Assembly (NCBI GenBank): GCA_964016885.1
Contig: OZ024740.1
Location: 91,946,001 to 92,010,000 of the forward strand
Length of the DNA: 64,000 nucleotides
Origin: Eledone cirrhosa
Taxonomy: Eukaryota
Direction: 5' to 3'
The position numbers and the translations under genes were made by a program. Below the pieces are notes generated by a model that searched no databases, was not told the origin of the DNA, and saw only the letters and a program-made list of their open reading frames with translations. Below, one piece after another: positions 7,513 through 64,000 of the stretch. Numbering within the stretch: the first letter of the stretch is position 1; every line of letters starts with the position of its first letter.

Positions 7513-7566
<54 letters not shown>

Positions 7567-7606
7567 TTCAAAATATTAACAACATAGATATTCTTGTGAT
7601 CAATTA

Positions 7607-7673
7607 TATTTTATTATACATATTTCAGAGGTACTGAGTTAAGTTCAACAGTACGTCCTCATCAGATAAAATA
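7607..7673 (-). ncRNA. Type I hammerhead ribozyme in the Naiad pLTR
   Basis: TATTTTAT-CTGATGA-GGACGTACTG..CAGTACCTCT-GAAA-TATGTA-TA-ATAAAATA: 8-bp stem I, AUA triplet. The inverted copy at 11474-11540 is mutated (CTGATCA). Confidence 0.85.
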
Positions 7674-9479
7674 AGATGACGCATGACATACCGCGACAAA
7701 GTAGATCGTTAAGAATCAGGCATGGTGGTGATTACCTTATGACAAAACTCAATAAATATATCCAAATATTGAGAACATTAAATAACATAATACAAACAAT
7801 AGAGCGTGCTTGTAATAGAGCTGAAGAAATACATGGCATCAATATAACAGATATACATTTTTAAAAACTATTGGAGAAAGAGGAGGGAAAGGAAAGCATA
7901 GAGGAAGAAACAGCTGATGTGATAATATATTTAGTAGGTGGCTCGAAAAAACAAATAAATGATGATTAAAGAGAGAGACAAAGGGGAGAAATTTTAATTT
8001 CAAGTTTATATACTTCCATATATGCAACACATGTCCAAATTAATATAGTTGGGGTTAATTTTCAAAGTATTTAATATAAGTTATTTCAGAGTAATGAATA
8101 ATATTTTAGGTTTTAAAATTAATAGGTATTTGTATTAATATTATAATTATGTTTAATATCTACAATTCAAATTGTATGAACACAAATTTAAAGGATTTAC
8201 GAAACACGAGAAAGAATATATATATATACATATATTACGCTTTTATATCTTCATGAAAATTATTTATAATATTGACTACAGTTTATATAATATAATTTAT
8301 GAAAGAATTATAGTTATAATTATTAAAGAATTTATTGTTAAATAATTTGAGTGGCTAAAGTATCAACCGGCCTTATAACTAAACTTAAAGAGGTCCGAAT
8401 TTTTAATTATGTATATGCGTTACAAAGATTATAGTTTATTATTTGTTTATAATTGAGGTGATACCTTTCAAATATAAATAATAATGCAATAATGTAATAT
8501 AGTAAATAAGTTACTGAAAATATTGTTCAAAAATATATATAGTTAACAAATGTTGTTAAAAATATTGCTAAAGAATTAATGTTTTAAATCAATTCTGTTC
8601 ATTTAGTTGATATATACTATAAAGATATAAGTCAAAGCTATATGAGTCATAATGATAGGGGCTAGATACACAATAAATATACAAATGAAATGAATTTTTT
8701 GAGAAATTTAAAGATGCCCAACATTAAAAATATATTGTAAATGCAATAGGGTTTTAATATAGTATATAAAAATGAATGTGATATAAAAAGGAGCTAAATA
8801 TTTGAAAAAGCCGAAGGTAATCTAAACTTAATTAAACTAAAATAAAATAAAATAAGTTAAATTAAATTATATTATATTATATTAAGTACATACTTATATA
8901 GGTTCGACCTTCCGGGAAATATCAAACACTTTAACAATATATAGTCATTTGCGTGTCTAAATTATATATAAATGTAACTACGATTATGTTATTACACTAG
9001 ATAAAGATATGTGTACAACTATATAGAGATATTATTATAGGCATTAATGAAACAGTATACATTTAATAAAAACAATAATAATTTAATCATTATTAGTAAT
9101 GCTATAATTGTAGTTTTACCTCCAGTTCAGTGGCGAGATATACCAATATTTGTCGGCTATTATGGTTTGGTATATTTATACCTAGATATATATAACAAAT
9201 AAATGCAAATCCAACTTTCTGAGTCCCCCAAAACATACTCAAAATTAGTAAAATATATAAAATATGCAAACGCATGAATGATCCACAGTTCAATTATAAT
9301 CAGTAAATTTACAAGTTAAATATCCAAACTATATATTTAAAAGAGAGACAGATAATTATAAATATATAAAAATCATTAGGTATGTATATTTATCAAGTAA
9401 ACAGGTTATCAAACTAGTGTCCTTCATTCTTACATTCATTCTATCATAAATGTTTAGAAAATAGAGCATTATTAAAGTG

Positions 9480-11165
9480 TTATATACTTGTTAAGCCCAA
9501 TAGTTGATAGGACGCGTAAAAAATCAGGCCTGGTTGTTTACTGTTTTTTCTGACTTTTAGCGATGCTTGGAATGTAGACAAAGCTTTATGAAGGCAGTTT
9601 GAGAATAATTCACTTTGTTTGTTAATTAAGTTTTCATAATTAGTAATTATTAATAGGGTCTCCTTTGTACAGAGGTTGCAGTTAATTGATATAGATGAGT
9701 TGGTATATATTTTACTATCACAAAGCTTCGTCCAAAAGACCGAGTATTTGAAATGTTTGTCTTTTAATGACCACATATTTGTCATAAAGAAGTCGAAGAC
9801 TTCCTATTAAAATTCTAAAATGAGCATTTGTGATTCGCAAATCTCGATATAAATATCGAAGAATTTGCCCCTATGTAGTTGTATGTGTTGATTTTTTTTT
9901 ACGGTGCATTTATACACCATATTTCTATCCAGACACTTATTTTGCAGAGGGCAATCTGGTTTATTTCTGCAATTACATGTCGATGTATTATTATTTATAT
10001 TAACAGTATTATTAATAGCATTATGTTGATTTTGGTTTAGAATTATACTGTTTATTTTAGCGATGTTTTTGGCCATATTCATAATTGTAGAATAAGACAG
10101 TTTAATTGTGTGTCTATTAAATATGGAGTGGTATTTATGTTGACTAATGAATGAAATATCTAAAGCTTTAAAATATAGATTAGCTATTGGTGTTCTTACT
10201 GCTACAGAAGCAGGGGGGGGGCATATACCTGGTTAAGTTCTGGTTCTTTTCCCCGATGTATTCACAGGACAGGTGTTTGAATTACAATTATTAAAATTTA
10301 TAGAATTTCATTTATATATGCCATTATTTTTATCAGGATAAAGACTCGGATTATTATTGCCTATATATTCTATATTATTTTTTATAACATCATTGCGCAT
10401 CATTGTAATATCCTGCCTTTTCATCAAATATTGATTTATTGGCAGATATTCTATTTATGCGTTTTTGTACACTATTTACAATTGCTTTTTTCACAGATTT
10501 AGGGTGATTAGAGTAATAACTAACGTAATTTAAGTTTTCATTGGGCTTATGGTAAGGGTAATAAAAACCAGAGTTTAAGTTAAGGGTAACATCAATGAAA
10601 TTAACTATTTTGGTACCACTTTCTACCTCTAGTTTAAGTTTGTAATTTTTAAACAATTCAATTATATATTTCTTTACCCTGTTTAGTTTTATAGTGTTGT
10701 GTTTAACAACCGTAAATAAAATATCGTCCCTATATAAACCACCGGTAATCTCCGGCAGTTTTCTATTTACCATATTTAAGATGAAAATCACCAGAAGATC
10801 CGTGATTTGCGCTGAATCAATGATCCCACGGTAATGTCAAAGTTTTATTTCTATCTGAGCGGGTCCAATACATATTGCTAAAGTTAATTAGAGTTCTTCT
10901 AGCAGTTAATATGATATCTATTTCATCCGTAGTTAGATCAGTATGTTTGTAAGCGTATGATAAAGCCTTATTTAGTAGGTTAGGCGTAATGGAAAAGTAA
11001 TAGCTTTTTATGTCGATCTGGATGAATTTCTGGTTTTTCTCATCATCTATATTTTTATACCATTCAATCACTTCATTTGTATCCTCCTACACGCTCAATT
11101 TAGACATCAATTTCAAAATCGGTAGAATTATATCAATAATATGTTTACTGATTACTCCAATATCC
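9480..11165 (-). pseudogene. PLE reverse transcriptase plus C-terminal GIY-YIG endonuclease (Naiad type), frameshifted
   Basis: IGVISKHII, FIQIDIKSYYFSI, GGLYRDDIL, NFIDVTLNL, PYHKPN, YYSNHP, CNCRNKPDCPLQNKCL..MVYKCTV, WSLKDK..WTKL, CNLCTKE, SELFSNCLH. Confidence 0.9.
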
Positions 11166-11694
11166 AATTTAATCATCTTTCATTTGTTTTTTCGAGCCAC
11201 CTACTAAATATATTATCACATCAGCTGTTTCTTCCTCTTTGCTTTCCTTTTCCTCCTCTTTCTCCACTAGTTTTTAAAAATAAAAAAATTATAACTGTTG
11301 TATTGATGCCATGTATTTCTTAAGCTCTATTACACTGACCCTCTCTATTATTTGTATTATGTTATCTCATGTTCTCAATATTAGGGTATAACTATTGGGT
11401 TTTGACATAAGTTAATCACTACCATGACTGGATCTTAACCGTGTACTATGTCAGGGTATGTCATGCATCATCTTATTTTGTCTGATCAGGACGTACTGTT
11501 GAACTTAACTCAGTACCTCTGAAATATGGATAATAAGATATAATTGATCACAAGAATATCTATCTTGTTAATATTTTGAATTAATATTAATAACTCTGGA
11601 AAACGTTTGCAGTTGAGTGCTTCTAATCTATTGTAAAACTCATTCTTTGATGTATTCATTGAACCTTGTTTAACTTTTAAATATATATATATAT

Positions 11695-16842: not shown

Positions 16843-17039
16843 AGGGAAATGTTCAAAACCACGACGGAAGAGCTCAAGCCGTTTGTACGGCTATTTCTGG
16901 TCCAGAAATAGCCGTCGAAACATCTTGAGCCCTGCAGTTGGCGTTTTGAACATTTTACTATTATCCACTCTACTACACAAAGTATTGAGTATTCTGGTTC
17001 GTTATGGTCCAACTGGTTCCTTACCACACTGCCTTTGTT
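16843..17039 (+). mobile_element. Family H mini fold-back (3' half of an HHR plus tail)
   Basis: Hairpin centred on GGCTATTTCTGG-T-CCAGAAATAGCC, then GAAA and a tail shared with 23441 and 47413; lies in (TA)n. Confidence 0.75.
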
Positions 17040-17040
17040 A

Positions 17041-17285: not shown

Positions 17286-17489
17286 GTATTAGTTATACTA
17301 TTTATGGTTATGCAAATACAAAACCTTAAGCAGTTGTAAGTATTTTACACACACCCTAAATAGTGGTAGGCAGTAATGTATTACTACCTTATTACCAGTA
17401 AGTTAAGTAGCTCAATGTAAAAACATCAGATGATTTACAGAGCAGTTATATGAAATATAAGAATCAAAGAACTGCTCAAAACATTATTG

Positions 17490-17536
17490 TGCTTACAGCT
17501 GTTTCCTCCAAACCGAGGTTTGGATTCTTCGGAGCA
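17490..17536 (-). ncRNA. Minimal type I hammerhead, U4C core, palindromic stem III (family B2)
   Basis: TGCT-CCGAAGA-A-TCCAAACC tc GGTTTGGA-G-GAAA-CAGCTG-TA-AGCA. Confidence 0.8.
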
Positions 17537-20169
17537 ATTTATTAATGCATGGACAGTTATATGACCTCCTTTTCAGCCGAGAGACATACCAAATACATAT
17601 TCAAACATTGATACATATTCAAACATTGTGGGTCAACATTCATTACAGAATTTAGTGTGGCAGTACACACTTCGAGATTACATTTATATTAATAGGTACA
17701 ATAAAAAATCAAAGATATAGGTTAAAGTACAACATGAAGATAAGTGGTTATATAGTGCAAATGTTATATGTGTGGCACGCATGTGCGTCTTGTTTATATA
17801 GTGTGGCAGAGAGATATGTGTGGTAGAGGCACTTAGGTAGGTAAATAAGAGTGTTAGGTTGGTAGATCTGGTGGCAAAATCTTTATATGATTGATATAGT
17901 TTGTGTGTGGAGAAATATTATAAGCATTAAAGATAGTGCAAGCATTAAAAGTGTTAAAAGTGTTATAAGTATTGGAGATGCACAGCGCAGGGATGTCAAG
18001 TATTTCATGTACTTCGGCATTTTCATGGTCAGGGGAGTGTATATTTCGATTATATGCCTGTCACATAATCCACGACAATCCAGTTAGAGATCGTAGTCTG
18101 GTGTTGTTTAGTTCGATACAGGAGGTTGTTACGTTTCGAGAAACGCCATTGAATACCGGAAGTGTGTGTGTGGCTAAGGGGAGTTAATGCATGCGGGGAG
18201 GTAACTCTGGGGTTTCTATATCTAGCCATTAAAATGTGTCCCAATATAGACCCTAAATTCTATGGTGAAGTGCACCTTCCAAGAGAGACTTTTAAAGTAT
18301 AAAGTGTATTAACTATAGAGTAGTTTAACTAAGTTATGCTGAAGGTGATCATATTATTATGGTGGATTAACCCATCTTAAGGTGCTACAAAAGGAAATTA
18401 TAGATGATGAGTGAGGATTCTAAATTAATGATCTCTGTGGTTGTAGTCTGCTCATATGACCAGGCGCGGTGACTGCAGGATTGCTTCAGGACCCAGTGAT
18501 CTCTGGTAAGATCTGGGTCATCGCTTGCTACATTGGATGTCGAAAGATAATCGTCCCCAGGCAGGCCAAAGGTCAATCCGCAGTCCTCGCGACCCCTCTC
18601 TGACCGTCAGATCCTCCATATACGTACAACCCGCACGGCAGTTGCATTGCATTCACTCACTGCGCTCAGCAGCCCGGTCCTACTGGTCAACAGCGCTACT
18701 CGATTAAATCATTTTACATCTGTATAAGGAAGGTGTTTCCTCTGCCCAACTCTATCCAACCGATCAATTCATGCTCAAATTACCCTTAGAGCGGTGTAGT
18801 GCCGTTCAAGTGGGTGGATGTTGTCACACCTGCCGTAGAGGTATAAATGGGTATTTTCCCTGCGAAGGGTTCCGGAGGGATGTCGTTGTTTGTGTTATAA
18901 AGGATCAGCTAGTGTTGGGTATGTAGTATAGGGTGTGTCTCTGGTGTTTGATGCTAGATGTGGTGTTACCTTCCTTAGACAGATGTAAAATGATTTAATC
19001 GAGTAGCGCTGTTGACCAGTAGGACCGGGCTGCTGAGCGCAGTGAGTGAATGCAATGCAACTGCCGTGCGGGTTGTACGTATATGGAGGATCTGACGGTC
19101 AGAGAGGGGTCGCGAGGACTGCGGATTGACCTTTGGCCTGCCTGGGGACGATTATCTTTCGACATCCAATGTAGCAAGCGATGACCCAGATCTTACCAGA
19201 GATCATTGGGTCCTGAAGCAATCCTGCAGTCACCGCGCCTGGTCATATGAACAGACTACAACCACAGAGATCATTAATTTAGAATCCTCACTCATCATCT
19301 ATAATTTCCTTTTGTAGCACCTTAAGATGGGTTAATCCACCATAATAATATGATCACCTTCAGCATAACTTAGTTAAACTACTCTATAGTTAATACACTT
19401 TATACTTTAAAAGTCTCTCTTGGAAGGTGCACTTCACCATAGAATTTAGGGTCTATATTGGGACACATTTTAATGGCTAGATATAGAAACCCCAGAGTTA
19501 CCTCCCCGCATGCATTAACTCCCCTTAGCCACACACACACTTCCGGTATTCAATGGCGTTTCTCGAAACGTAACAACCTCCTGTATCGAACTAAAGAACA
19601 CCAGACTACGATCTCTAACTGGATTGTCGTGGATTATGTGAAATGCATATAATCGAAATATACACTCCCCTGACCATGAAAATGCCGAAGTACATGAAAT
19701 ACTTGACATCCCTGCGCTGTGCATCTCCAATACTTATAACACTTTTAACACTTTTAATGCTTGCACTATCTTTAATGCTTATAATATTTCTCCACACACA
19801 AACTATATCAATCATATAAAGATGTTGCCACCAGATTACCAACCTAACACTCTTATTTACCTACCTAAGTGCCTCTACCACACATATCTCTCTGCCACAC
19901 TATATAAACAAGACGCACATGCGTGCCACACATATAACATTTGCACTATATAACCACTTATCTTCATGTTGTACTTTAACCTATATCTTTGATTTTTTAT
20001 TGTACCTATTAATATAAATGTAATCTCGAAGTGTGTACTGCCACTCTAAATTCTGTAATGAATGTTGACCCACAATGTTTGAATATGTATCAATGTTTGA
20101 ATATGTATTTGGTATGTCTCTCGGCTGGGCTGAAAAGGAGGTCATATAACTGTCCATGCATTAATAAAT

Positions 20170-20216
20170 TGCTCCGAAGAATCTAAACCTCGGTTTGGAG
20201 GAAACAGCTGTAAGCA
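20170..20216 (+). ncRNA. Minimal type I hammerhead, U4C core (family B2, right arm)
   Basis: TGCT-CCGAAGA-A-TCTAAACC tc GGTTTGGA-G-GAAA-CAGCTG-TA-AGCA. Confidence 0.8.
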
Positions 20217-20247
20217 CAATAATGTTTTGAGCAGTCCTTTGATTCTT

Positions 20248-20290
<43 letters not shown>

Positions 20291-23440: not shown

Positions 23441-23633
23441 GAAAATGTATGAACCCGACGGCAGAGCTCAAGCAGTTTCGACGGATATTTCTGCAGCCCA
23501 GAAGTAGCCGTCAAAACGGCTTGACCTCTGCCGTCGGAGTCATACATTTTCCTATTACCCACTCTGCTACACTAAGTATTGAGTACTCTTGTGCGTTATG
23601 GTCTATCTGGTTCCTTACCACACCTCCTTCGTT
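23441..23633 (+). mobile_element. Family H mini fold-back
   Basis: GACGGCAGAGCTCAAG...CTTGACCTCTGCCGTC hairpin plus the shared tail; lies in (TA)n. Confidence 0.75.
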
Positions 23634-26134: not shown

Positions 26135-27145
26135 ATCGGAATAAAAATGTCCCTGCTGAAACAAGAATAATTCATTAACTACGCCCTTTATATGGCAAAG
26201 GATGAAGCAGAAGACATAAAGACGTTCCGTGCATAGTGAGCCAACACTGTGAACCTGAATATATCGGTACAAACATCACAATATAAGCTAATGGCCACTT
26301 CGTTAAAATTGACATTTAAGTGCTCTATACAAAAATGTTAATGTTATGTCAGAAAACATGATGTACCTAAGGCTAGTCATCTCCAAATATCTACAATATC
26401 ACGCTACAGCGAAATGAACGCTATTCAATGATATATGATTCACAAAATAGCATTTAAATCGTACAAAAGAAAATTTAACTTCTTGCGAAACATATATATA
26501 TATCCTTTGATGTAAATAAATCTCGCAATAAAAGTGGTATTAACGGTATTCTTCCCTATTAAATCAATAAATTGATGGAGATTATATGTTTGATCACGAA
26601 ATGATATATTGTATGTAAAAGAGATTTCTTAGAACACAATTATCTATAGATTTAATTGTATCGCAGTTGACTTAACTATAATAATAGAAAATAAAATTAT
26701 AATATATAAGGTATTAAAGATAATCCTTAATTTTGAAAGAAAATCCTCTAATTTATATAGAAATGCATCAAATATACTAGCGCACTTGTAATTGTTTTAG
26801 AGTATTATCCTATCCTATAAGATGTACACACACACCCACGTATATATCCCCACATGTTAAATTATTCATTTTATTAAGAATAAATATTAAGTGTTATTAA
26901 TCTGCTGTTTCGACTCTTTATCACTGTGTCGACACACATTATTAATTTATATATATTTAAACGTTAAACAAGGTTCAATGAATACATCAAAGAATGAGTT
27001 TTACAATAGATTGGAGGCACTCAACTGAAAATGTTTTGCAGGGTTTTAATAGAATAGACACAAGATACATCGAAAATAATTTAGCGAATGAGATAGAAAG
27101 AGGAGCTAAAAGAGGTAAATATTTGAAAGAGTTAGTTTCCTTGTT

Positions 27146-28250
27146 GTTACCCTTAACTTAAACTCTGGTTTGTATTACCCTTTCCATAAGTCCAATGAAA
27201 ACTTAAATTACGTTAGTTATTACTCTAATCACCATAAATCTGTGAAAAACGCAATTGTAAATAGTATACAAAAACGCAAAAATAGAATATCTGCCAATAA
27301 ATCAATTATTGATGAAAAAGCAAGATATTATGCACTAAGAAAGGCAGGTTATACAAATAATATATAATATATACACAATAATAATCCGAGTCTTAATCCT
27401 GATAAAAATAATGGCATATATAAACGAAATTCTAAAATTCTAATAATTGTAATTTAAAAACCTGTAATATGAATAAATCGGGGAAAAGAACCAGAACTAA
27501 ATGAGTTATATGATCCCTCCCCCATGCTTCTGTAGCAGTAAGAACACCAATAGCTAATCTATTTGTTAAAGCTTTAGATAGTTCCTTCCCTAGTCAACAT
27601 AAATACCACTCCATATTTAATAGACACACAATTAAACTGTATTATTCTACAACTATGAATATGGCCCAAAACATCGCTAAACTAAATAGTATAATTCTAC
27701 ACCAAAATCAACATAATGCTCTTAATAATAGTGTTAATATAAATAATAATAAATCGAAATGTAATTGTAGAAATAAACCAGAGTGCCCTCTGCAAAATAA
27801 TTGTCTGGATAGAAATATGGTGTATAAATGCACAGTAAAAACAAATAACAACACATACAACTACATGGGAGCAACCTCTTCGACATTTAAATCGAGATTT
27901 GCGAATAACAAATACTCATTTTCATACTTTAGTAGGAAGTCTTCGACTTCTTTATCACAACTTATATGGTCATTAAAAGACAAACATTTAAAATACTCGA
28001 TCTTTTGGACGAAGCTTTGTAATAGTAAAATATATCGAACTCATCTTTATCAACTAACTGCAACCTCTGCACAAAGGAGACCCTATTAATAATTACTAAT
28101 TATGAAAACTGATTTCACAAATAAGTGAATTATTCTCAAACTGCTTTGTCTACATTCCAAGCCTCGCAAAAAGTCAGGAAAAAGCACTAAACAATCAGGC
28201 CTTAATTGTTGACGTCTCTTATCAACTGTTGGGCCTAAAAAGTCTTAACA
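27146..28250 (+). pseudogene. PLE RT thumb plus GIY-YIG endonuclease relic
   Basis: YYPFHKSN..YYSNHH, CNCRNKPECPLQNNCL, MVYKCTV..YMGATSSTFKSRF, TSLSQLIWSLK; frameshifts present. Confidence 0.9.
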
Positions 28251-29659
28251 GTTTATAAAACTTTAATAATGCTTTACCTTCTAATCATTTATGATAGAAT
28301 TAATGTTAGAATGATAACATTTTTACTTGATAAATATGCATATCTTATGAGTTTTTTAGATATTTATAATTTTGATTCAGATCTTTATTTATCTGTCACA
28401 AATATATAAATTGGATATTTAACTTGTAAATTTACCGATTATAATTGAAATGTGGATCATTCATGCGGTTGCATATTTTACATATTTTACTCATATTGAG
28501 TATGTGTTTGGGGTCACAGAATATTAGATTTGCATCTATTTATTTTTTTATATATATCTATGTATAAATATCTAAATCCATAATAGTCGACAAATATTGG
28601 TCTCTTTCTCCACTGAACTGGAGGTAAAATTTCAATTATAGCATTACTAATAATGATTATAATTATTTTTTATTAAATATATACCTATAATAATATCTCT
28701 ATATAGTTGCACAAATATCTTTATCTAGTGTAATAACATACTCGTAGTTACATTTATAAATAATTTAGACACTCAAATGAGTCTATATTGTTATAAGTGT
28801 TTGATATTCCCTGGATGTTCGAATGTATATAATGATTTTTACATAATATAATATAATTTAATTTAACTTATTTTATTTTAATTAAATTTAGATTACCTTC
28901 GGCTTTTTCAAATATTCAGCTCCCCTTTCTATCACATTCGCTAAAATATTTTAGATGTATCTTTTGTCTACTATATTAAAACCCTATTACATTTATAATA
29001 TATTTTAAATTTATAATTTGGTTATTTAACTTGTAAATTTACTGATTACAATTGAACTGTGGATCATTCATGCGTTTGCATATTTTACATATTTTATTCA
29101 TTTTAAGTATGTATTTGGGGACTCAAAAAGTTAGATTTGCATCTATTTATTTTTATATATATCTAGCGCATAAATATAACAAACCATAATAGACGATAAA
29201 TATTGGTCTCTCTCTCCACTGAACTGGAGGTAAAACTTCAATTATAGCATTACTAATAATGATTATAATTATGTTTTATTACATATATACCGTTTCATTA
29301 ATACCTATAATAATATCTCTATATAGTTGTACAAATATCTATATCTACTCAATTAAATCCCTATTACATTTATAATATATTTTTAATATTGGGCATCTTT
29401 AAGTTTCGCAAACAATTCTATATCTTTATTTGTATATTTATTTTGTATCTAGCCCGAATCATTAGCACTCATATAGTATATATCAACTAAATGAAAATAA
29501 TTGATATAAAACATACATTTTTTAGCAATACTTTTTAACAATATCTTTTAACTATATATATGTTTTTAACAATATTTTCAGTAACTTATTTACTATATTG
29601 TATTATAGTATTATATTATATATATTTGAAATGTATCACCTGAATTATAAACAAATAAT

Positions 29660-29832
29660 TGTTTCTATTTTTGGCACAAGGCCAGAAATAACCAAGTACA
29701 TTACTGGTACTTTATTTTCTCGATGAAAGGCAAAGTTAACCTCAGCGGGATTTGAACTCTGATCATAAAGGGACGCAACTCTATGCTGGATAGCATCGCG
29801 TCCGACCCTCTACCGATACTGCCAATCCCCCT
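29660..29832 (-). mobile_element. tRNA-derived SINE inserted in Naiad copy 2
   Basis: Matches the SINE consensus; absent from the equivalent position in Naiad copy 1 (about 8430). Confidence 0.85.
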
Positions 29833-31284
29833 ATAATCCTTGTATATTTTTTTATCAACACATATATATAATTAAAAATTCAGACTTCTTTAAGTTTAGT
29901 TATAAGGCCTGGTGATCCTTTAGGCACTCAAATTATTTAACAATAAATTCTTTAATAATTATAACTATAATTATTTTATAAATTATATTATATAAACTGT
30001 TGTAAATATTATATATAATTTTGGTAAAGATTACCTTCGTGAGGGTATAAAAGTATTATATATTTTCATTCTCGTGTTTCGTAAATCCTTTAAATTTGTT
30101 TTCATAAAATTTGAATTTTAGAAATTAAACATAATTATAATATTAATACAAATACCTATTAACTTTTAAAACCTAAAATATTATTCATTACTCTGAAATA
30201 ACTTAAATTAAATATTTTGAATATTAACGGCCAACTATATTAATTTGGATATATGTTGCATATATGGAAAACTGTATATAAACTTGAACATAAATTACTC
30301 CCCTTTGTCTTTCTCTTTAATCATCTTTCATTTTTTTTTGCGAGGCACTTACTAAATATAAATATATTATCACATCAGCTGTTTCTTCCTCTACGCTTTA
30401 CTTTCCCTCCTCTTTCTTCAGTAGTTTTTAAAAATCATATTTTTAACTGTTATATTGATGCCATGAATGATTTAAGCTGTATTGCACGCACCCTCTCTAT
30501 TTTTGTATTATGTTATCTCATGTTCTCAATATTAGGGTATAAATATTGAGTTTTGTCATATGTTAATCACTACCATGACTGAATCTTAACCATCTACTAT
30601 GTCAGAGTTTGTCATGCATCATGATGAGGACGTACTGTTGAACTTAACTCAGTATCTCTGAAATATGTATAATAAAATATAATTGATCACAAGAATATCT
30701 ATTTTGTTAATGTTTTGAATTAATATTATATATATATATATATATCAAAAACATTAAATTAAGGCTGCCATATCCACTGCAGAATAAGCTCAAATATTGC
30801 AATGAATAGATCCGATTTCAATGAATAGATCCGAGCATTTCATATCAACTAGATATAGATTGAAATATATATATATAAAATAAACATATGGAACAATCAC
30901 AAGGGATAATTTGTAAAGTATGTAAGCACACATAACTATGTAGGTAACCAATTAAAGTGTAACTAGAACTTCAAATATAGATACCATTTAAGTATATTTC
31001 TTTAAATAAAAAAAATTTGCATTTGCTTTTTAAACGCGGATAGATATTTAATCTCCTTTGGCGACCATCCAGGATTTGACTACTGTAATTTACTGATTAA
31101 TTGGTGAAATATATATTTTATTTAAAGAAATATTGTACAAAGGAGATTAATAATTTTAATATTCGAAGTTCTAATTAAATTTTAATTTGTTACCTACCTA
31201 GTTACATACTTTTCAAATTATCCCTGTGATTGTTCCATATGTTTATTTTATATATATATATATATGTCAATATATTTCTAGTTG

Positions 31285-39954: not shown

Positions 39955-41760
39955 AGGTATTTGCTTGGTTGCACGTCTCTGAACAGTTTCCAGGCGGTCA
40001 ATGTTCTGAGCATGTTAGGGGTTCCAGACTGGTGATGCAAATTCTATGTGTGGTCGCACCATAGCTGTATACAGCCTTAAATAGATATCTGGAGAGCGGC
40101 TGACAAAGGTCTTGCTGAGTGATGCTAAGACACCCTCGGCCCTCTTGACAATTTTAGAGACGTGCCTCGTCCAACGCAAATCGCTGCTGACCGTAATACC
40201 CAGGTCGCGTTCACAGGAAGACTTCTTGATATTAGTGCTGTGGAGGAAGTATGTGGACTCTGGGTTTTTACTCCCAAAATGCATGGTGGTGCACTTGTCC
40301 ACAGCTAGCTTGAGTTGCCAGTCTTAGATCCATTGTTGCATTGTGTCCAGCTCAGACTGCAAGCAAGATCTATAGTATTCAGGATCTGTCCTTTTTATCT
40401 CAAGGTACAGCTTGATGTCGTCTGCGTACTTTAGTACTGTGGCATTCATTAAGTTGGCATCTATGTCATTAATATCTGCCACAAACAAAATGGGGCCAAG
40501 AACAGATACATTGGTACACCAGATGACATCTCATATGGTGAGGAATGCTGTCCCAGAACCATGACTACCTCTCTTCGACTGAGAATGAAGGACTTCAACC
40601 AGTTAAAAAGATCATTCTTCACACCCATTGCAGAGAGTTTTGTCATAAGCCTTTTGTGTGGCACAGCATTGAAGGCCTTCGCAAAGTCAAGGTAAACAAC
40701 ATCCACCCATGATCCGCCATCAGTGATCCGGGTGATGTCCTCAAGAAACTCTATAAGTTGATCACAGCAGCTGGAGTTGGGAATAAATCCAAATTGCGAG
40801 GGCCGGATAAGACTGTGAGAGCTCCAGAAGTTCCAAAGTGTTTCTCTGACACAGCATTCCATCAGTTTGGCGATAAAACTAGTAAGAATGACTGAACGAT
40901 AGTTAACAGGTGACGTGCGGTCACTCTTTTTGAAGAGAGGAATGACATTGGCAGTTTTCCACTGTTCTGGAGTAGCACTGTTGTTCAGACAGAATTGGAA
41001 GAAGCGTGATAACTGGTGTAGAAGGAAGTACCCACCACGCTTAAGAAGCAGGTACGTAACACCATCAAGACCAGGAGAGGCATGGTTGCGTTTATGTTTT
41101 AGGTGACGTCGCAGCATTGCATGTGTAGATTCCATGGTTGTAATAGAGTCTGGTGTCATAGGTGTTGGAGATGGTACACTCGGGTCCTCAATAGTGAACA
41201 TGCCTGCATAGCATTCAGCAATGAGCTGTGCGCATTCCTTGGGGTCGTCAGTAACCTGGCTTGTGTGGGGATTGCGAAGAGGACCATTTGGAGAGTAAGG
41301 CCTCTGCTTTGAGTGAACATACTTCCAGAACACCTTACTGTCAGGGCTGGTTGCTATGCGCTGCTCAAATTAAAGCACTGCCTTTTTTGTCACCTGTCTG
41401 ATGTGGTTGGACGATCTATTTCGCCTCTTCCTATTAATGTCTGATTTGTGAAGTTTGTACTCACGTTCAGCATTGCGCCGTTCTTTTCTGGCAAGACGGA
41501 CTGCTGCAGTCTCCCAAATTGCGCTTTTGGGATGTTTTTTCCGCTTACGTGGCACCGATGCTGCACATGCTGTCCATATTGAGCTCAGGATGTTCTGGAG
41601 TACAGTGTTGACATCTCCAGAGTCGTAGAAGTCAAGCCAGTTTGGCCGTTGCAACTCGGTGCAGTAACAGTTCCAATCTGCTTTATTCCAGTCAAATCAG
41701 TATAGATGGTGTCGTTTTTCTAGCTCTAACAAGCCACAACATTTGCCATGACCATCATTA
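39955..41760 (-). mobile_element. CR1-clade LINE RT region, truncated pseudogene
   Basis: FWKYV, SPGLDG, WKTANVIPLFKK..NYR, QFGF, DVVYLDFAKAF, KYADDIKLY, DKCTTMHFG, ERDLGITV, VRPHIEFASPVWNP. Confidence 0.9.
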
Positions 41761-45155: not shown

Positions 45156-46925
45156 ACAATAATACGTTTGAAAACTCAAATCCAAAGAGGGCTGGATAAG
45201 GATAATTATATATCAAATATATAATAACCGTAGACCAAGTATTTATTCAAATAACAGATTAAAGTTTAAGCAAAGAATCGCTGCTTTCAGCCTTAACGGG
45301 ATCTTCTGAAACTGACAAAGTCAATCTGTAAACGGAGAAGTGAATATTTCAAAAAACATTGCAACCGGAGGAAGACAGGAAGACGATACTTTGATTCCTG
45401 GAAATGTTCCCTGGCAAAGAACGGGAAAAAATGAATATAATACCTTATTATTTGGAGCGGTGAAAAACAATTACACGCAAAGACAGAACCACGTTTATGC
45501 TATAAAAGAAGTCGTAGACAAATATTCTCTTAGGTGGTTCATAGAGACGTTCTCTGGCAATGAACGGAAAAAACGAAGATAATACGTCATATGTGGAGCG
45601 GGGAGGACAATTGCACGAAAAATAAAACCACGTTTATGGTATTACTGAAGTCGTAGACTAAAATTCTAACTAGGAAACCGAATGATTCTCCACTTCAGAG
45701 TTAAGAATAAAGTATATAAAATACAGAGGTAATTGAAATTAAATAAATACATACACGCATCCAAATACGTACATACATAAGCAAACGCGAAAACACTCGC
45801 CATATGTATACAAATACACGCAGATGTAAATGTGTGTGTGTGTGTGCGTGTGTATACAAATAATTAAATAAACGTATATAAATAAATAAATACGTATATA
45901 ACAAGCGCACACACATACCTACATGTAGATACACAAATGTTCGGAGACATACGTCAACCAAAACACGAAGTACACATATACACACACCCTACATACGTAC
46001 GAATCCGCATACTCGCAAAACTCACGTATACACATAACCAAAAGCATATGTTCCAGTATATATAAAATATACGCCATAAGATATACAATCAAATTTACGT
46101 ACGAGAAAGTATAGATCGTACTATCCGTTAGGGTATAATGTGGGGCTGTAATACAGGAAAGCGTTGTGCAATTTATGTTTACAAGCGGAAATTGCCTCAG
46201 ATTTTGTGTTTAAGATGTGGTCTGTGGCGTAGAGTATTTCCAGGGGCTCAGCGGCGCAGAGGTCACATGGTATTTTATATATATACGTATTTATTTATTT
46301 ATATACGTTTATTAAATTATATACACGCAAACACACACACACACATATTTATTGTGCGTGTATTTGTATACCTATGGCGAGTGCTTTCGCGTATGCTTGT
46401 GTATGTACGTATTTGGATGCGTGTATGTATTTATTTAATTTCAGTTACCTCTGTATTTTATTTACTTTATTCTTAACTCTGAAGTGGAGAATCATTCGGT
46501 TTCCTAGTTAGAATTTTAGTCTACGACTTCGGTTATACCATTTGCGTGGCTTTGTCTTTACGTGCAATTGTTCTCCACGCTCCACATATGACGTATTATC
46601 TTCGTTTTTTCCGCTCATTGCCAGAGAACGTCTCTATAAACCACTTAAGAAAATATTGGTCTACGACTTCTTTTATAAAATAAACCTGGTTCTGTCTTTG
46701 CGTGTAATTGTTTTTCACCGCACCAAATAATAAGGTATCATATTCGTTTGTTCCCGTTATTTGCCAGGGAACGTTTCCACGAACGAAAGTATCATCTCCC
46801 TGTCTTCCTACGTTGCAATGTTTTTTGAAATATTCACTTCTGCGTTTACATATTGAATTTGTCAGTTTCAGAAGATCCCGTTAAGGGTGAAAGCAGCGAT
46901 TCTTTGCTTAAACTTTAATCTGTTA

Positions 46926-46930
<5 letters not shown>
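45152..46930. mobile_element. Family F fold-back: approx. 650-bp arms, approx. 380-nt spacer
   Basis: 45249-45900 is inverted at 46281-46930; HHR in both arms (45263-45313 - and 46864-46914 +); about 95-nt extra left tail. Confidence 0.85.
46864..46914 (+). ncRNA. Type I hammerhead-like motif, U4A core (family F)
   Basis: AGTTT-CAGAAGA-TCCC gttaa GGGT-GAAA-GCAG cgattct TTGC-TT-AAACT: CUU triplet. Confidence 0.7.
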
Positions 46931-46961: not shown

Positions 46962-47374
46962 GGAGGTGAGTTTTATTGTAGTACAATAAAGCAATGCAGA
47001 TATCGGATAAGAAGCACTCTACAGTTTGTGGGACTGGAGTATGCATAATATAAGATCAAAAGATTGTTAAAGGAGTTCAATATATTTTATTATGCGCATT
47101 TCAAAAACAAACATCATCAAACAATAATATTTGTGTTTTCATCAGATAAAACAGGAGAACATGATATGAAGGCTAAAAAAACACTTGTTGATAGTGCAGT
47201 TTTAAATCAACATATGTTGATTTAAAACTGCACTATCAACAAGTGTTTTTTTAGCCTTCATATCATGTTCTCCTGTTTTATCTGATGAAAACACAAATAT
47301 TATTGTTTGATGATGTTTGTTTTTGAAATGCGCATAATAAAATATATTGAACTCCTTTAACCATCTTTTGATCT

Positions 47375-47382
<8 letters not shown>
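46959..47382. mobile_element. Family G spacer-less palindrome (approx. 168-bp arms) plus approx. 85-nt tail
   Basis: Symmetry centre 47213/47214 (CAT|ATG); only one mismatch seen; HHR in both arms. Confidence 0.9.
47274..47344 (+). ncRNA. Type I hammerhead ribozyme, canonical core, palindromic stem III (family G; mirror copy 47083-47153 -)
   Basis: TGTTTTAT-CTGATGA-long stem II-GAAA-TGCGCA-TA-ATAAAATA; stem I is almost identical to that of the Naiad HHR. Confidence 0.85.
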
Positions 47383-47412
<30 letters not shown>

Positions 47413-47415
<3 letters not shown>

Positions 47416-47595
47416 AACGCGTAGGACCCAACGACCTGTGCTAAAGCCGTTTCGACGGCTTATTCAGAATTAGCCGTCGAAACGGCTTGAGCTCAGCCGT
47501 CGGGTCTACTCGTTCCTATTACCCACTCTACTACCCTAAGTATTGAGTACTTTGGTGCGTTATGGTCCACCTGGTTCCTGACCACATTTCCTTCG

Positions 47596-47597
<2 letters not shown>
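47413..47597 (+). mobile_element. Family H mini fold-back
   Basis: AGCCGTTTCGACGGCT..AGCCGTCGAAACGGCT hairpin; GAAA-CGGC...GCCG-TC stem III; shared tail. Confidence 0.75.
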
Positions 47598-47667
<70 letters not shown>

Positions 47668-48257: not shown

Positions 48258-48771
48258 AATAAATATAATCTGAGTTTTTTTAAATATTAATAATAACATT
48301 CGATTCGTTTACAATTATGCAATGTTATAGCCATAACAGTAGAATGAACCCTTCATTCTTGCTCACTGTTCATCTGCCAAACTGTCAGAGCCAGTGAAAA
48401 TATATGCTGTCAGAGCTAGTCAGTACTAGTGAAAAACTGACTGGCTAGTCGGCTGATATGCAAATCTGGCTGATCAGCCAGTCGGCTAATATGCAAATCA
48501 GGTCGATCAGTCACTATGTATTTTTGAAAATAGCCTATATTTTTACTAGCTCTGACAGTTTGGTAGGTGAACAGTGAGCTGTACCGATGATGGGTGATAC
48601 CCAGAAACATTAGTGTCTGCAGTTCTGTTCAGATGCCAACACAGGAGCAAGAATGAAGGGTTCATTCTGCAATGTAGGCTTGCTTGCATAATTACAAACG
48701 AATCAAATGATATTATTAATATTCGAAAAGCTCAGATTACATTTATTGTATTCAGCCATGAAGAGCGAATA

Positions 48772-48775: not shown

Positions 48776-48830
<55 letters not shown>

Positions 48831-48833
<3 letters not shown>

Positions 48834-49460
48834 AATGCATATTTGAAAGGGATGAACACTGCTACAAATATATATGTGGTCGAATTGCAAATGACCAAGT
48901 TAGCTAGGTTGACAAATAGTAATTTAAAATAATATGGTTTGCCTGTCTCAATTTAAAATAATAAATCAATAAAACTAACAAACCGATATTGGCAATGGCC
49001 GTGATACCCGGACAAATTCTAAATTTGTTTCGCAACAATTAAGTGAAAGTTACTATTCCTGTGCTCTTCTGCGGGTATCCAGGATCTTCGTACCTTTCAC
49101 TTCAAAATACTTAAGAAGACTGAGAAACATTTGCTGTTGAACGCACATGTGTCACAGCGCCTAACTCGTGGCATACTCGTTCCGCTAAAACTAGCAGCCG
49201 GTTTTATGGGACTAAAATTAGCTCTACGTATGGCGCCTAGAATATCATATATTGAGTTATAAACTCGAAATAGTCTATTATTTTCAATTAGCATCTTTCA
49301 ACCTAGCTAACTTGGTCATTTGAAATTCGAACACATGTATATTTGTATCAGTGTTCATCCCTCTCATATATTCATTTGTATTACACGGCTCGGAAATATT
49401 CCCTTCTTTCAGCTATTTAATTGTAAAAGACTATTTCGCGTTTATAACTCAATATATGAT
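48831..49460. mobile_element. Family J non-coding HHR element (approx. 490-nt circularly permuted unit) with an inverted second arm
   Basis: 48831-48912 is inverted at 49298-49380; 49241-49276 is inverted at 49428-49462; HHR on the minus strand. Confidence 0.8.
49003..49079 (-). ncRNA. Type I hammerhead ribozyme, U4A core, long stems (family J)
   Basis: GATACCCG-CAGAAGA-GCA....TGC-GAAA-CAAATT tag AATTTG-TC-CGGGTATC: 8-bp stem I, 7-bp stem III, GUC triplet. Confidence 0.85.
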
Positions 49461-49475
49461 ATATATGTATATATA

Positions 49476-50064
49476 TTTCCTTTCTGAATTTGTTTGGCAA
49501 GATCCTTTATCTGAAAACGTGTGTTGAAACCGATATTATTATACTTTGGGAGGGTCATGTTGCCAATAAGAAACAAACGCACCACCAGTTTCACTTCAAT
49601 TTATTATAAATTAAACATCTTCTTAAAAAGATTTTAAATTTGTTTTAATAAATTTCCGGTTGGTCGGTGGTTTCGACAACCGGATGTTTGTTCATATATT
49701 GTCAAAGTTCTTTCGTAACACATTCTGTGACCCCTTCAGTGACTGGGGATTATTTACTTTTATGTGTGCCTTCTCTTTGTTCTGTCCTACGCCACCTTGT
49801 TTTTGTGTGTTATGTGCTTAGTTTGAAAAGGTCACAGTATGTGTGACAAAAGAACTTTGACAATATATGAACAACCGTCCGGTTGTCGAACCATGCAACC
49901 AACCGGAAATGTATACATTTTTTTGAAAAAATGTGTCAAAATATTTTGTGAGAAATGTTGTTTTTTATAATCTGAAAAAAAAAATTAATTTATAATAAAT
50001 TGGAGTGAAAATCATTGGTGCGTGTGTTTCTTATAGGCAACATGACCCTCCCAAAGTATAACAA
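49476..50064. mobile_element. Family D fold-back with degenerate HHRs
   Basis: About 49535-49735 is inverted at about 49828-50064; minus strand GTCA-CTGAAGG-GGTCAC..GTTAC-GAAA-GAAC-TT-TGAC; about 55-nt extra left tail. Confidence 0.75.
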
Positions 50065-62097: not shown

Positions 62098-62908
62098 AAG
62101 TGCTCACCTTTTTTCCATTACCATTCAAAATCTATACAACTTCATACTTTCTGCTACTTTCCCTTTCCAAGCTTGATGGTGATACTGTCCGTTTTACTCT
62201 CTCATATAATCTGTCTACCTCTATCTACAACCCACACATTTTGCTACTTTCTCGTATATACTTCAACCTTACTGATTTATTTCCAAACGCATACAAACAC
62301 ACACTCGCTTCAAATGATATAAACACATTTAAAGCAATTAAACAACGTGAGTGATTTATAACCACACTAACTTTTAGTTTCTTCAAACTTAATGATTGAT
62401 TTACAAACACATACAAACACACACTCAAATAAATTGATTTAAAAAAATGTAAAGCAATTAAACAACGTGCGGGATTTATAACCACAAACATTTGCCATTT
62501 GCAACATTTACGTAAACAATCAAGTGCTTTCCTCTTTCCATTACCATTCAACATCTATACAACTTCATACTTTCTGCTACTTTCTCTTTCCAAGCTTGAT
62601 GGTGATACTGTCCGGTTTTACTCTCTCATATAATCTGTCTACCTCTATCTACAACCCACACATTTTGCTACTTTCTCGTATATACTTCAACCTTACTGAT
62701 TTATTTCCAAACGCATACAAACACACACTCGCTTCAAATGATATAAACACATTTAAAGCAATTAAACAACGTGAGTGATTTATAACCACACTTACTTTTA
62801 GTTGCTTCAAACTTAATGATTTATTTACAAACACATACAAACACACACTCACATAAATTGATAAAAAATAATTTAAAGCAATTAAACAACGTGCGGTATT
62901 TATAACCA
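62098..62908. repeat. Approx. 425-bp tandem duplication in the Helitron 5' region
   Basis: 62098-62485 is repeated at 62524-62908 (duplicated ORF-track peptides); candidate Helitron 5' TC near 61896. Confidence 0.85.
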
Positions 62909-62909
62909 T

Positions 62910-64000
62910 CTGCGCCTTCTACTCCATGAGGTTTTAGGCCCACAAAGTTTTCAAGACATCAGAACTGTTGACGGTGTATTATGTGATACTTTCCGCGAAG
63001 CCGGCTTTCGGCGTGGACTTTTGGAGGACGATTCACAATGGGGCGCCACTATGGCGGAGGGTGTTTCGATAAAATCTCCTAAAAAAATCAGATCGCTTTT
63101 CGCTATTCTACTCCTATGGTGTGACTTGGCTGATCCCGCCTCTGTATGGCTTACCTAGAAAGATTATATGTCTGAAGATTTCCTGCGTCACGCTCAATGG
63201 CTACATCCATCAATGGAGGTCGGGTACAGTGACCTCATTTACAACAGGGCACTGCTTGAAATCGAAGTTACTGTACTTGATATGAGCGGTAGTGCCTTGG
63301 CGGTATATGGCCTACCTTCAACAAACCGGGAACGCACAAACACTCTGTCTTCAGATTTGCTGCGTGAGACATGTTTTAATGTTGACGAGATTGCACAGTA
63401 CATAGCCGAGAATGAGCCAAAGCTACTTCCAGAAAAGAAGTTCGCTTACAACTCCGTTGTTAATTTAGTCCGGGCCAAAGCTGGGGGGATTTTTTTCCTG
63501 GACGCTCCTGGTGGAACTGGGAAAACTTTTGTCACCAAATATTATTGACTGAGATTAGGCGAACACAAGGCATTGCCCTAGCTTGGCATCATCTGGAATT
63601 GCGGCTACTTTGTTGCCAGGCGGCAGGACAGCTCACTCCACTTTCAAGCTCCCGCTTGACTTAGCGAAAACTGAGACACCAACTTGCAACATCAGTAACA
63701 GCTCCAACCAGGCAGAAGTCTTCAAACGATGCAAGCTTATCGTTTGGGATGTATGCACGATGGCCCACAGAGGTGCTCTTGAGGCACTAGATAGATCTCT
63801 CAGAGACATCAAACACTCTACAGCTCCGATGGGAGGCATAACACTTCTTCTTTCAGGGGACTTCCGGAAAACACTTCCCGTTATTCCCAAGGGGACTAGG
63901 GCTGATGCAGTAAATGCGTGTCTTAAGTCATCCATATTGTGGCCACTAGTGAACACTCTCAAACTTAACACTAACATGCGTGCTCATATGCCATGTGGTA
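62910..64000 (+). pseudogene. Helitron RepHel, PIF1-like helicase portion with stops and a frameshift
   Basis: GPQSFQDIRTVDG..TFREA..GLLEDD, MSEDF, FFLDAPGGTGKTF, ASSGIAATLLPGGRTAHSTFKLP, LSGDFRKTLPVIP, LNTNMR. Confidence 0.95.

Follow-up and report, generated by a model that had tools for sequence, protein, structure and literature searches.

The J repeat copy examined here lies in the window (the whole 64,000-nt stretch of DNA that was analyzed), on contig C1 of a 3.0-Gb genome, in AT-rich surroundings with many (TA)n tracts. Positions within J refer to a 496-nt majority unit built from genomic copies, in which position 1 is the first A of segment A (window 49276, minus strand), the hammerhead covers 199-278, the cut falls after 270, site 1 is 450, site 2 is 35, and the tail is 451-496 plus 1-35. 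The parts of the window copy are as follows.

48777..48830, left flank: (TA)n target microsatellite
48829..49280, minus strand: long arm (loci L001/L070), unit positions 493 to 450 (0.92 unit), inner 3' end at site 1, no tail
49003..49079, minus strand: type I hammerhead fold; stem I of 8 bp, stem II of 2 bp plus an imperfect extension, stem III of 7 bp
49071-49065, minus strand: hammerhead core CAGAAGA (U4A)
49013-49011, minus strand: GUC cut triplet, with the predicted cut between 49011 and 49010
49242..49276, minus strand: segment A, unit 1-35, with a small GAGTT/AACTC hairpin; equals the tail's second half
49276..49280: head-to-head arm junction, 5-nt overlap
49276..49462, plus strand: short inverted arm, unit positions 347 to 35 (0.37 unit), outer 3' end at site 2, tail included
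49382..49462, plus strand: 81-nt tail between both fixed 3' ends, unit 451-496 plus 1-35
49388..49413, plus strand: bulged hairpin GCTC-GGAA..TTCC-(7-nt bulge)-GAGC, a form common to Hydra-clade PLE tails
49463..49477, right flank: short degenerate (TA)n

Both arms of the window copy end in (TA)n, and the 106 nt that they have in common are 88.7% identical. Segment A is internal in the long arm, where it continues into unit position 36. An ORF-less unit of about 490 nt whose downstream tail equals its own 5' start had been proposed for this locus, and both parts of that proposal were borne out: positions 49424-49462 match the inverted 49242-49280 at 94.9%, and joining the arms gives a loop of 492 nt, compared with 496 nt in contiguous genomic copies. 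The strand and layout given for the body were also correct, with small corrections to its limits: the long arm runs from 49280 to 48829 and not from 49295 to 48831. The window hairpin is mismatched at 49410, where 170 of 179 other columns counted have G. Immediately 3' of site 2 lies a small hairpin, CGGCTC ... GAGCT, within unit 36-57 (window 49241-49220, minus strand). The motif also occurs 3' of site 1, and at site 2 it is mutated in the window copy; this hairpin may be a relic of the jump that made the unit. No second J copy was found in the 64-kb window. Reads from three runs of one sample, aligned to the window copy, gave only short repeat contigs, with none across the copy.

We searched the genome for J and obtained 2,442 candidates at first look for the body query and 1,697 for the tail query. 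Exact hammerhead patterns of 16 and 15 bases matched 290 and 422 times, respectively, and never as reversed controls; therefore, at least 700 J copies bear the hammerhead. J3, with CCTG in stem I, is the larger subfamily (422 exact matches, compared with 290 for CCCG). The unit is about 496 nt, circularly permuted, and without an ORF, the longest ATG frame in the doubled unit being 36 aa. There was no protein match on the unit and no tRNA in the 3 loci checked; J has no LTR, PBS, or tRNA head, and its repeats are partial tandems of variable length. Contiguous copies run in the order C-D-A-B-C-D-A, which proves the loop. The consensus of genomic copies closes into a loop, which was the check proposed with the original prediction, in that a collinear arm exceeded one unit in 63 of 138 distinct loci and the 496-nt unit closes on itself; the opposite outcome, copies that extend into a long coding element, was not encountered, as arms loop back and no J arm continuing into coding sequence was seen among the loci examined. 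The 138 loci remained after 13 of 151 were left out as duplicates (L040 and L094 perhaps wrongly), and 6 of 45 and 6 of 30 rows of later locus sets were left out as repeats of earlier loci. All J counts come from this one genome.

Direct repeats of at least 60 nt were present in 84 arms of the 195 pooled loci. Among the long arms, L078 has 1.77 units, L061 about 2.65 units with two interruptions, and L290 and L291 have 3.3 units each. Head-to-tail multimers with at least 2 complete hammerheads were the dimers and trimers L061, L078, L255, and L290, and a tandem array (L284-L289) on contig C11, which extends from about 4,449,400 to beyond 4,510,000 (at least 60 kb). This satellite-like array consists of about 120 J3 units of 495-513 nt each and was sampled as five 10-kb stretches plus the right edge, the far end lying beyond the part reached. 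It starts at unit position 26, after a foldback sequence. Mean identity among 84 full units was 94%; of 79 units scored, 62 had the family core and 11 had no G5. The array forms a side branch, with no dispersed copy inside the array clade (18 units sampled, support 81/74), and its candidacy as the source of dispersed copies is thus unsupported. In L290, private changes are common to two of three units, and the units of L291 are 98.8% identical; some long multimers, such as these two, are probably later duplications at the DNA level.

J copies differ by 3.5-6% from their own subfamily majority, and the J tree is ladder-like with a lineage about 10% deep. A late subfamily (L314, L316, L318, L319) of about 535 nt has a duplicated GAAA-stem III segment, with a CCGAAGA core in some copies. 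Four divergent relatives (L258, L261, L280, L281) are 69-75% identical to J, one with a CUGAAGA core; these may be older branches and useful to root the tree.

The 5' ends of J arms are variable, and the 3' ends are fixed on the hammerhead strand: among 268 segments, 100 end at unit 450 and 113 at unit 35, two points 81 nt apart. TA repeats directly follow 181 of these 213 fixed ends. Head-to-head pairs were found in 137 of the 195 pooled loci; 99 combined 450 with 35, 4 combined 450 with 450, none combined 35 with 35, and 34 had an interrupted or unclassed end. Each end was therefore used by one arm in 99 of 103 classifiable inverted insertions (P = 5e-25); part of this sample was chosen by the tail query, and without those loci 51 of 53 in the first set were one of each. 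Subfamily diagnostics agreed between inverted arms in 61 of 61 cases. The inverted arms of one locus differ by 5.1%, and the direct repeats within an arm by 5.3%. The 5.1% difference is what decay of identical copies would give, in view of the distance of copies from their subfamily majority, and the sequences show that both arms and both direct repeats were identical at insertion. Copying of one arm from the other by folding back was considered and rejected: the short arm holds 46 nt that are missing from the long arm in the window, and the 5' ends of paired arms are unrelated.

This anatomy corresponds to the PLE pattern of 5' truncation, partial tandem, inverted arm, tail at one end, and (TA)n target. 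Partial tandems, an inverted truncated copy, a one-end tail, and a bias toward (TA)n have been described for PLE insertions (Craig et al. 2021, PMC8557442), and the pattern including the one-end tail is also given by Arkhipova 2013. No target-site duplication was discernible for J in (TA)n. In the anole Poseidon element PAc, the PLE protein was reported to cut and extend both strands of an AT-rich target and to start at two internal RNA sites whose spacing equals the tail (Frangieh et al. 2024, PMC11167929). By this analogy, we infer that unit 450 and unit 35 are two RT start sites that are both used in each insertion, one per target strand. PAc was described as having no strand preference per start site, and the available part of that report contains no coupling of the two, whereas J insertions are nearly always one of each.

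The idea that J is a satellite or MITE-like foldback element spread at the DNA level hardly merits belief, even with a 60-kb tandem array and insertions that resemble inverted repeats, as arm lengths and inversion points differ per locus, 3' ends are fixed on the hammerhead strand, the array is derived and not ancestral, and DNA expansion covers only the array and some multimers. J arms are also 5' truncated and inverted just like PLE stubs, so that J could be no more than the pLTR of an autonomous PLE, left as a truncated 3' end of that longer element, its short copies being dead-end stubs remade each time. This is very improbable: in every long arm the sequence upstream of the unit is the unit again, the unit has no protein match, and PLE coding remnants lie near J at 9 distinct loci, in none of which the ORF runs collinearly into the 5' end of a J arm.

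The PLE involved was sought through the tail. The J tail opens with a bulged RCTC..GAGY hairpin and has two hairpins within its 81 nt. Directly after the inner end, the order is TAT|TA, a spacer of 2-6 nt, RCTC, then a stem-loop, a short bulge, and finally GAGY, and this order is common to J, the Hydra family of the window, and at least 6 other repeat families; most tails have a second hairpin shortly ahead of the outer end. The motif TATTA..RCTC..GAGY gave 207 matches, compared with 10, 10, and 13 for three scrambled controls in the same 202 sequences; of 206 hairpin-motif matches in the tail survey, 129 were J itself. By plain alignment, the J tail resembled the tail of family K (z = 6.6, 0 of 500 shuffles) and that of the K relative L193 (z = 4.7); its similarity to the Hydra tail of the window itself was at chance level (z = 0.7), and four other tails were likewise not close. 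K is a coding family: in L233, the C-terminus of a Hydra endonuclease is found 1.3 kb upstream, oriented the same way and connected through a 3' region common to another K copy. Similarity of J to autonomous families is confined to the tail.

Hydra-clade PLEs are present in the window as two broken copies, each with a 3' region of 2 kb, at 7555-11685 and 26950-30730, the first as follows.

7555..11685, minus strand: broken Hydra-type PLE, not J; tailless main arm; on the inverted arm, a tail of 97 nt, with its hairpin starting at 11593

In these copies, the hammerhead is located about 45 nt from the inner end and has a 3-bp stem III, and one of the arms has the 97-nt tail. Their family is extremely abundant in the genome, with end architecture as in J. 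The PLE remnants at 9.5-11.2 kb and 27.1-28.2 kb encode RT motifs, then CNCRNKPxC, then a GIY-YIG-like domain. The Hydra clade is described as having a CxCX5C linker, a C-terminal endonuclease, a (TA)n target, and a canonical hammerhead, and Naiad as having an N-terminal endonuclease and no canonical hammerhead (Craig et al. 2021, PMC8557442). The order of RT, CxCX5C, and GIY-YIG in the window elements is therefore Hydra architecture and not Naiad. Hydra endonuclease gave 61,651 first-look candidates in the genome. Of the consensus ends published in the Craig supplement, those of Hydra-2_Amil, from a coral, and Hydra-2_Ajap, from a sea cucumber, show this hairpin in the form GCTC-stem-bulge-GAGC; that of Hydra-1_Crog is imperfect, Hydra-1_Amil has a weak trace at most, and two Hydra consensus sequences end before the tail. 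The hairpin was absent from the last ~100 nt of the two published cephalopod Naiad consensus sequences inspected. Given the hairpin in Hydra tails here and at published Hydra ends, and the Hydra type of the window PLEs, the partner of J is likely a Hydra family and not Naiad. The original prediction had named Naiad RT as the enzyme that copies J; its PLE RT and the link through a shared hairpin fit our data, and the choice of Naiad is not supported by them.

Mobilization by a Naiad or Neptune enzyme is improbable in our estimate, although those clades also target (TA)n and Neptune-type elements are abundant here, with 10,597 GIY-YIG candidates. Nearly all of the 30 best GIY-YIG loci had a C-terminal endonuclease and a CxxxxCxxC linker, which is Neptune type by published description, and none of the 30 had the hairpin motif at its own end within 1.5 kb. 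There was no Naiad among these 30 loci or among the annotated window pieces, in a search made without a Naiad query. Both here and in three further phyla, the hairpin tail goes with Hydra ORFs, and Naiads are described as lacking canonical hammerheads. On the other side, some hairpin families have no identified ORF, and the search for the exact Hydra partner came up empty: J had no significant match to 50 Hydra loci, the partner family was not found in 14 extended Hydra loci, 30 K loci, or 30 GIY-YIG loci, and no body similarity to the pLTRs sampled was observed. Four J motifs had 0 matches in the part of the Craig et al. 2021 supplement that was searched.

The window contains further elements of related appearance. 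Small palindromic insertions with a (TA)n end and an RCTC..GAGY tail hairpin lie at 47040-47387, 47415-47600, 16955-17040, and 23549-23630, and in the 47040 family each of the two arms bears a hammerhead of its own. A young inverted element at 17300-20252, with arms 99% identical and a 165-nt tail opening with the hairpin, has, close to the inner end, a hammerhead-like motif whose core reads CCGAAGA; the element gave no match to PLE proteins and is possibly another, longer non-autonomous family. A hammerhead-like fold with a CCGAUGA core (48576-48625) sits at the center of a palindromic insertion (48258-48747) that adjoins J. Variants at core position 4 seem common among these hairpin and hammerhead families. 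An inverted element at 45249-46928 retains, at 46294-46142, a remnant of the C-terminus of a Hydra endonuclease. At 40461-41369 there is a fragment of a LINE-type RT (Pfam RVT_1), and at 62100-63550 a fragment of a PIF1 helicase that is accompanied by short tandem repeats and probably belongs to a Helitron. Elsewhere in the genome, several abundant Neptune-type PLE families (L329-L358) likewise end in (TA)n.

The hammerhead at 49003-49079, with its 8-bp stem I, 7-bp stem III, and GUC, was confirmed on the minus strand as originally described. All three stems formed in the predicted fold (z = -2.4, 2 of 200 shuffles; z = -1.3 with more flank), and the hammerhead also formed when the unit was folded as a circle (z = -4.7). 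The model agrees with the earlier expectation that the J hammerhead can fold as a monomer. Minimal PLE hammerheads have been described as needing dimers (Cervera 2014), and the local Hydra motifs have stems III of 3 bp, unlike the 7 bp of J. In 141 complete copies, the three-stem fold with GAAA and GUC was present, and 15 of 17 stem pairs were paired in 87-96%. To call this hammerhead robust was an overstatement, though: its core is CAGAAGA and not CUGAnGA, core position 4 being A in 134 of the 141 copies and U in 4. Rfam had no match in the window at gathering score, and none of its hammerhead families matched 3 J loci at E up to 1. A literature search on U4A hammerheads returned no ribozyme paper with the term. 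According to Perreault 2011, changes of the hammerhead core mostly lead to a sharp loss of activity, U4 is in contact with the A6-N7 phosphate, and a viroid U4C variant was slow in vitro yet sufficient in vivo; U4A does not come up in the text consulted. The family-wide U4A may slow cleavage and keep most templates intact, a weaker reading of the same sequences.

Copies with CUGAUGA and CAGAUGA cores are found at one end of the tree, followed by CAGAAGA with G-C in stem III and then CAGAAGA with A-U. If the canonical core is taken as ancestral, the tree being unrooted, the compensatory change in stem III is later than U4A. The stem III pair is A-U in 67 and G-C in 54 of 141 copies, and the stem I pair is C-G in 66 and U-A in 20 of 105, the U-A change being that of J3. 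The stem I change is weaker as covariation because both of its sides are CpG sites. Stem III of J3 was lengthened through hairpin-preserving duplications. Doubly changed cells numbered 15, compared with 6.8 in shuffles, but only 2 pairs were altered on both sides, a count reached by 360 of 500 shuffles, and each compensatory change is a single inherited event. From these few events, the sequences are consistent with selection on the hammerhead fold.

Whether the template was a circle or a line was addressed through repeats and 5' ends. Where one arm contains direct repeats, subfamily diagnostics agreed in 41 of 41 cases, and upstream and downstream repeats had no systematic difference (2 of 496 columns nominal). 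Repeats that stay alike despite ~10% lineage change indicate that in each cycle both are renewed from a single unit. Arms that cross the cut site show no scar there, and columns 270-271 are conserved. No sharp 5' stop was found at the cut site, and 8 of 213 arms cross it twice; 5' ends were overrepresented just 3' of the cut site (13 of 58, P = 0.002), a figure confounded by a near-palindrome at 284-292. The stopping rate per nt was 0.002-0.006 in the first pass and 0.0086 in the second. In the second pass, the hazard rose to 0.030 per nt at 190-220 and 0.020 at 271-292, at the same position in both arm types, whereas first-pass stopping was raised only at 271-292 (0.012) and was 0.0046 at 190-220. 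Unit 290-301 is covered twice by 38 arms, and in 32 of these the 5' end falls within 190-292, compared with 17 expected (P = 0.0008); for J1/J2 arms the count was 20 of 21 (P = 0.0002), with subfamily labels in this analysis assigned by simple motif rules. The upstream hammerhead is almost never passed by J1/J2 arms and is often passed by J3 arms.

These results allow more than one scenario. We lean, by a modest degree, toward a circular template. On the DNA evidence, the account with a similar slight edge is that J was likely pasted into (TA)n by a Hydra-clade PLE endonuclease and RT, probably from a circular monomer RNA that the hammerhead would release from dimeric or arrayed copies. The pile-up of 5' ends at the upstream hammerhead counts against a simple endless circle, which needs extra assumptions. 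The pile-up could be due to stalling at GC-rich tracts while first-round cDNA is displaced, to mixed cut, linear, and circular templates, or to linear RNA that starts at about 190-220.

The last of these belongs to a serious alternative that we regard as less probable: the same element and Hydra partner, but with a template that is either a linear RNA left uncleaved, about 1.7 units long and beginning near unit 190-220 of an upstream repeat, or a read-through of dimers and arrays. The upstream repeat would be renewed by template jumps between homologous repeats, and the hammerhead would cut a minority of transcripts or act as a folded element. Such a template accommodates the second-pass pile-ups and the missing first-pass excess at 190-220, as well as the U4A core and the report that hammerhead cleavage was dispensable for PAc in vitro, where unprocessed RNA was the main PLE substrate (Frangieh et al. 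2024, PMC11167929). It also fits the scarcity of full dimers in J1/J2, where 8 matches to the dimer patterns included 2 J loci; this scarcity is valid for those subfamilies only, as the CCCG-based patterns miss J3. The same double-core pattern caught unrelated tandem repeats (L247, L249-L252, L248), including a 31-nt minisatellite and a CCGAAGA repeat at ~490-nt spacing. A linear template is harder to reconcile with the absence of separate diagnostics for upstream and downstream repeats over the lineage, which makes regeneration necessary nearly every cycle. There is also no common upstream flank or sharp start at 190-212, and the sole large array is a side branch without dispersed copies.

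If the circular template is correct, the Hydra protein would bind the tail hairpins of the J RNA, and both strands of the cut (TA)n would prime synthesis, one at each tail border. Each cDNA would run a variable distance, beyond one full unit on the closed template, and the 5' ends of both cDNAs would then be joined head to head. With less assurance, the occasional dimers and arrays, partly expanded as DNA, may be the donors of J RNA. A more specific version, which is tentative and in its full combination rather unlikely, is that J is a minimal circular-RNA parasite whose two-hairpin tail is docked by a Hydra dimer, with RT starting at both borders, the circle being rolled, and U4A being a selected attenuation. 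Each RT site would be primed by one (TA)n strand, which would force the head-to-head insertion with one tailed and one tailless arm; RT rolling round the circle would produce the pseudo-LTR; and U4A would keep the circle closed long enough for copying.

At the DNA level, J has the characters of both a non-LTR retrozyme and a non-autonomous PLE. Metazoan non-LTR retrozymes have been described with units of 170-400 nt and PLEs as proposed mobilizers (Cervera and de la Pena 2020, PMC7229834). J resembles them in its non-coding unit, single type I hammerhead, low GC, tandems, and lack of LTR and PBS, and in a predicted self-paired circle with the hammerhead free to fold. It differs in its unit of 496-513 nt, its 7-bp stem III and U4A core, its mostly dispersed insertions of 0.1-1.7 units with inverted arms as opposed to tandem arrays, the lack of a discernible target-site duplication in (TA)n, and the putative status of its circular RNA. 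Plant LTR retrozymes, with a type III hammerhead in LTRs, PBS, PPT, and a 4-bp TSD, are unlike J, which has a type I fold and no fixed LTR. J shares with Hydra-clade PLEs (PMC8557442) the (TA)n target, partial tandems, inverted 5'-truncated arm, one-end tail, and RCTC..GAGY hairpin. Unlike these coding elements, it has no ORF; its hammerhead lies ~170 nt from the inner end, compared with ~45 nt near the 3' end in Hydra PLEs, and its tail is 81 nt, within the 75-100 nt of families here, compared with 30-40 nt in the Hydra PLEs of that study. The hairpin is carried by the published Hydra consensus ends but is not mentioned in the available text of that study, which describes non-autonomous PLEs for Chlamys (MRC1) and not for Hydra.

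The broad idea of retrozymes as PLE-dependent is already in print (Cervera 2020; Li 2026 preprint). Hammerhead circles as PLE templates were proposed in 2014 and 2020, and one in vitro study found cleavage dispensable. Li, Clavereau, and Pollet (bioRxiv 10.64898/2026.07.22.740005) report that retrozymes depend on PLEs, with units of 51-972 bp, dispersed monomers, and local multimers; the J unit is within that range, and the outline conclusion is the same. Their basis is co-occurrence and pLTR similarity for Xenopus Neptune/Poseidon, with no end architecture, tails, or common hairpin in the accessible part of the preprint. In the sources consulted, the enzyme moving animal retrozymes has so far been deduced from co-occurrence and pLTR likeness only. 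Our literature search, which left most subscription papers and Repbase outside its range, found no paper on the RCTC..GAGY hairpin, start-site coupling, or the J family. What appears to be new is the PLE integration signature on a retrozyme, the tie to Hydra through a cross-phylum hairpin, the near-strict use of one start of each kind, and the fixed U4A core in a fold that seems to be structurally constrained.

Taken together, J offers short and readable insertions in their hundreds, in which a cis hairpin links a retrozyme with one PLE clade. It shows near-strict coupling of two start sites per insertion, which bears on how the pseudo-LTR, the tail, and the head-to-head arms are formed. As a 500-nt substrate with a handful of point changes, it would be a handy model for testing PLE copying. 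If the tentative combined reading of J as a minimal circular-RNA parasite is true, RCTC..GAGY would be the first RNA recognition element to hold across the Hydra clade of PLEs, in corals as in this genome.
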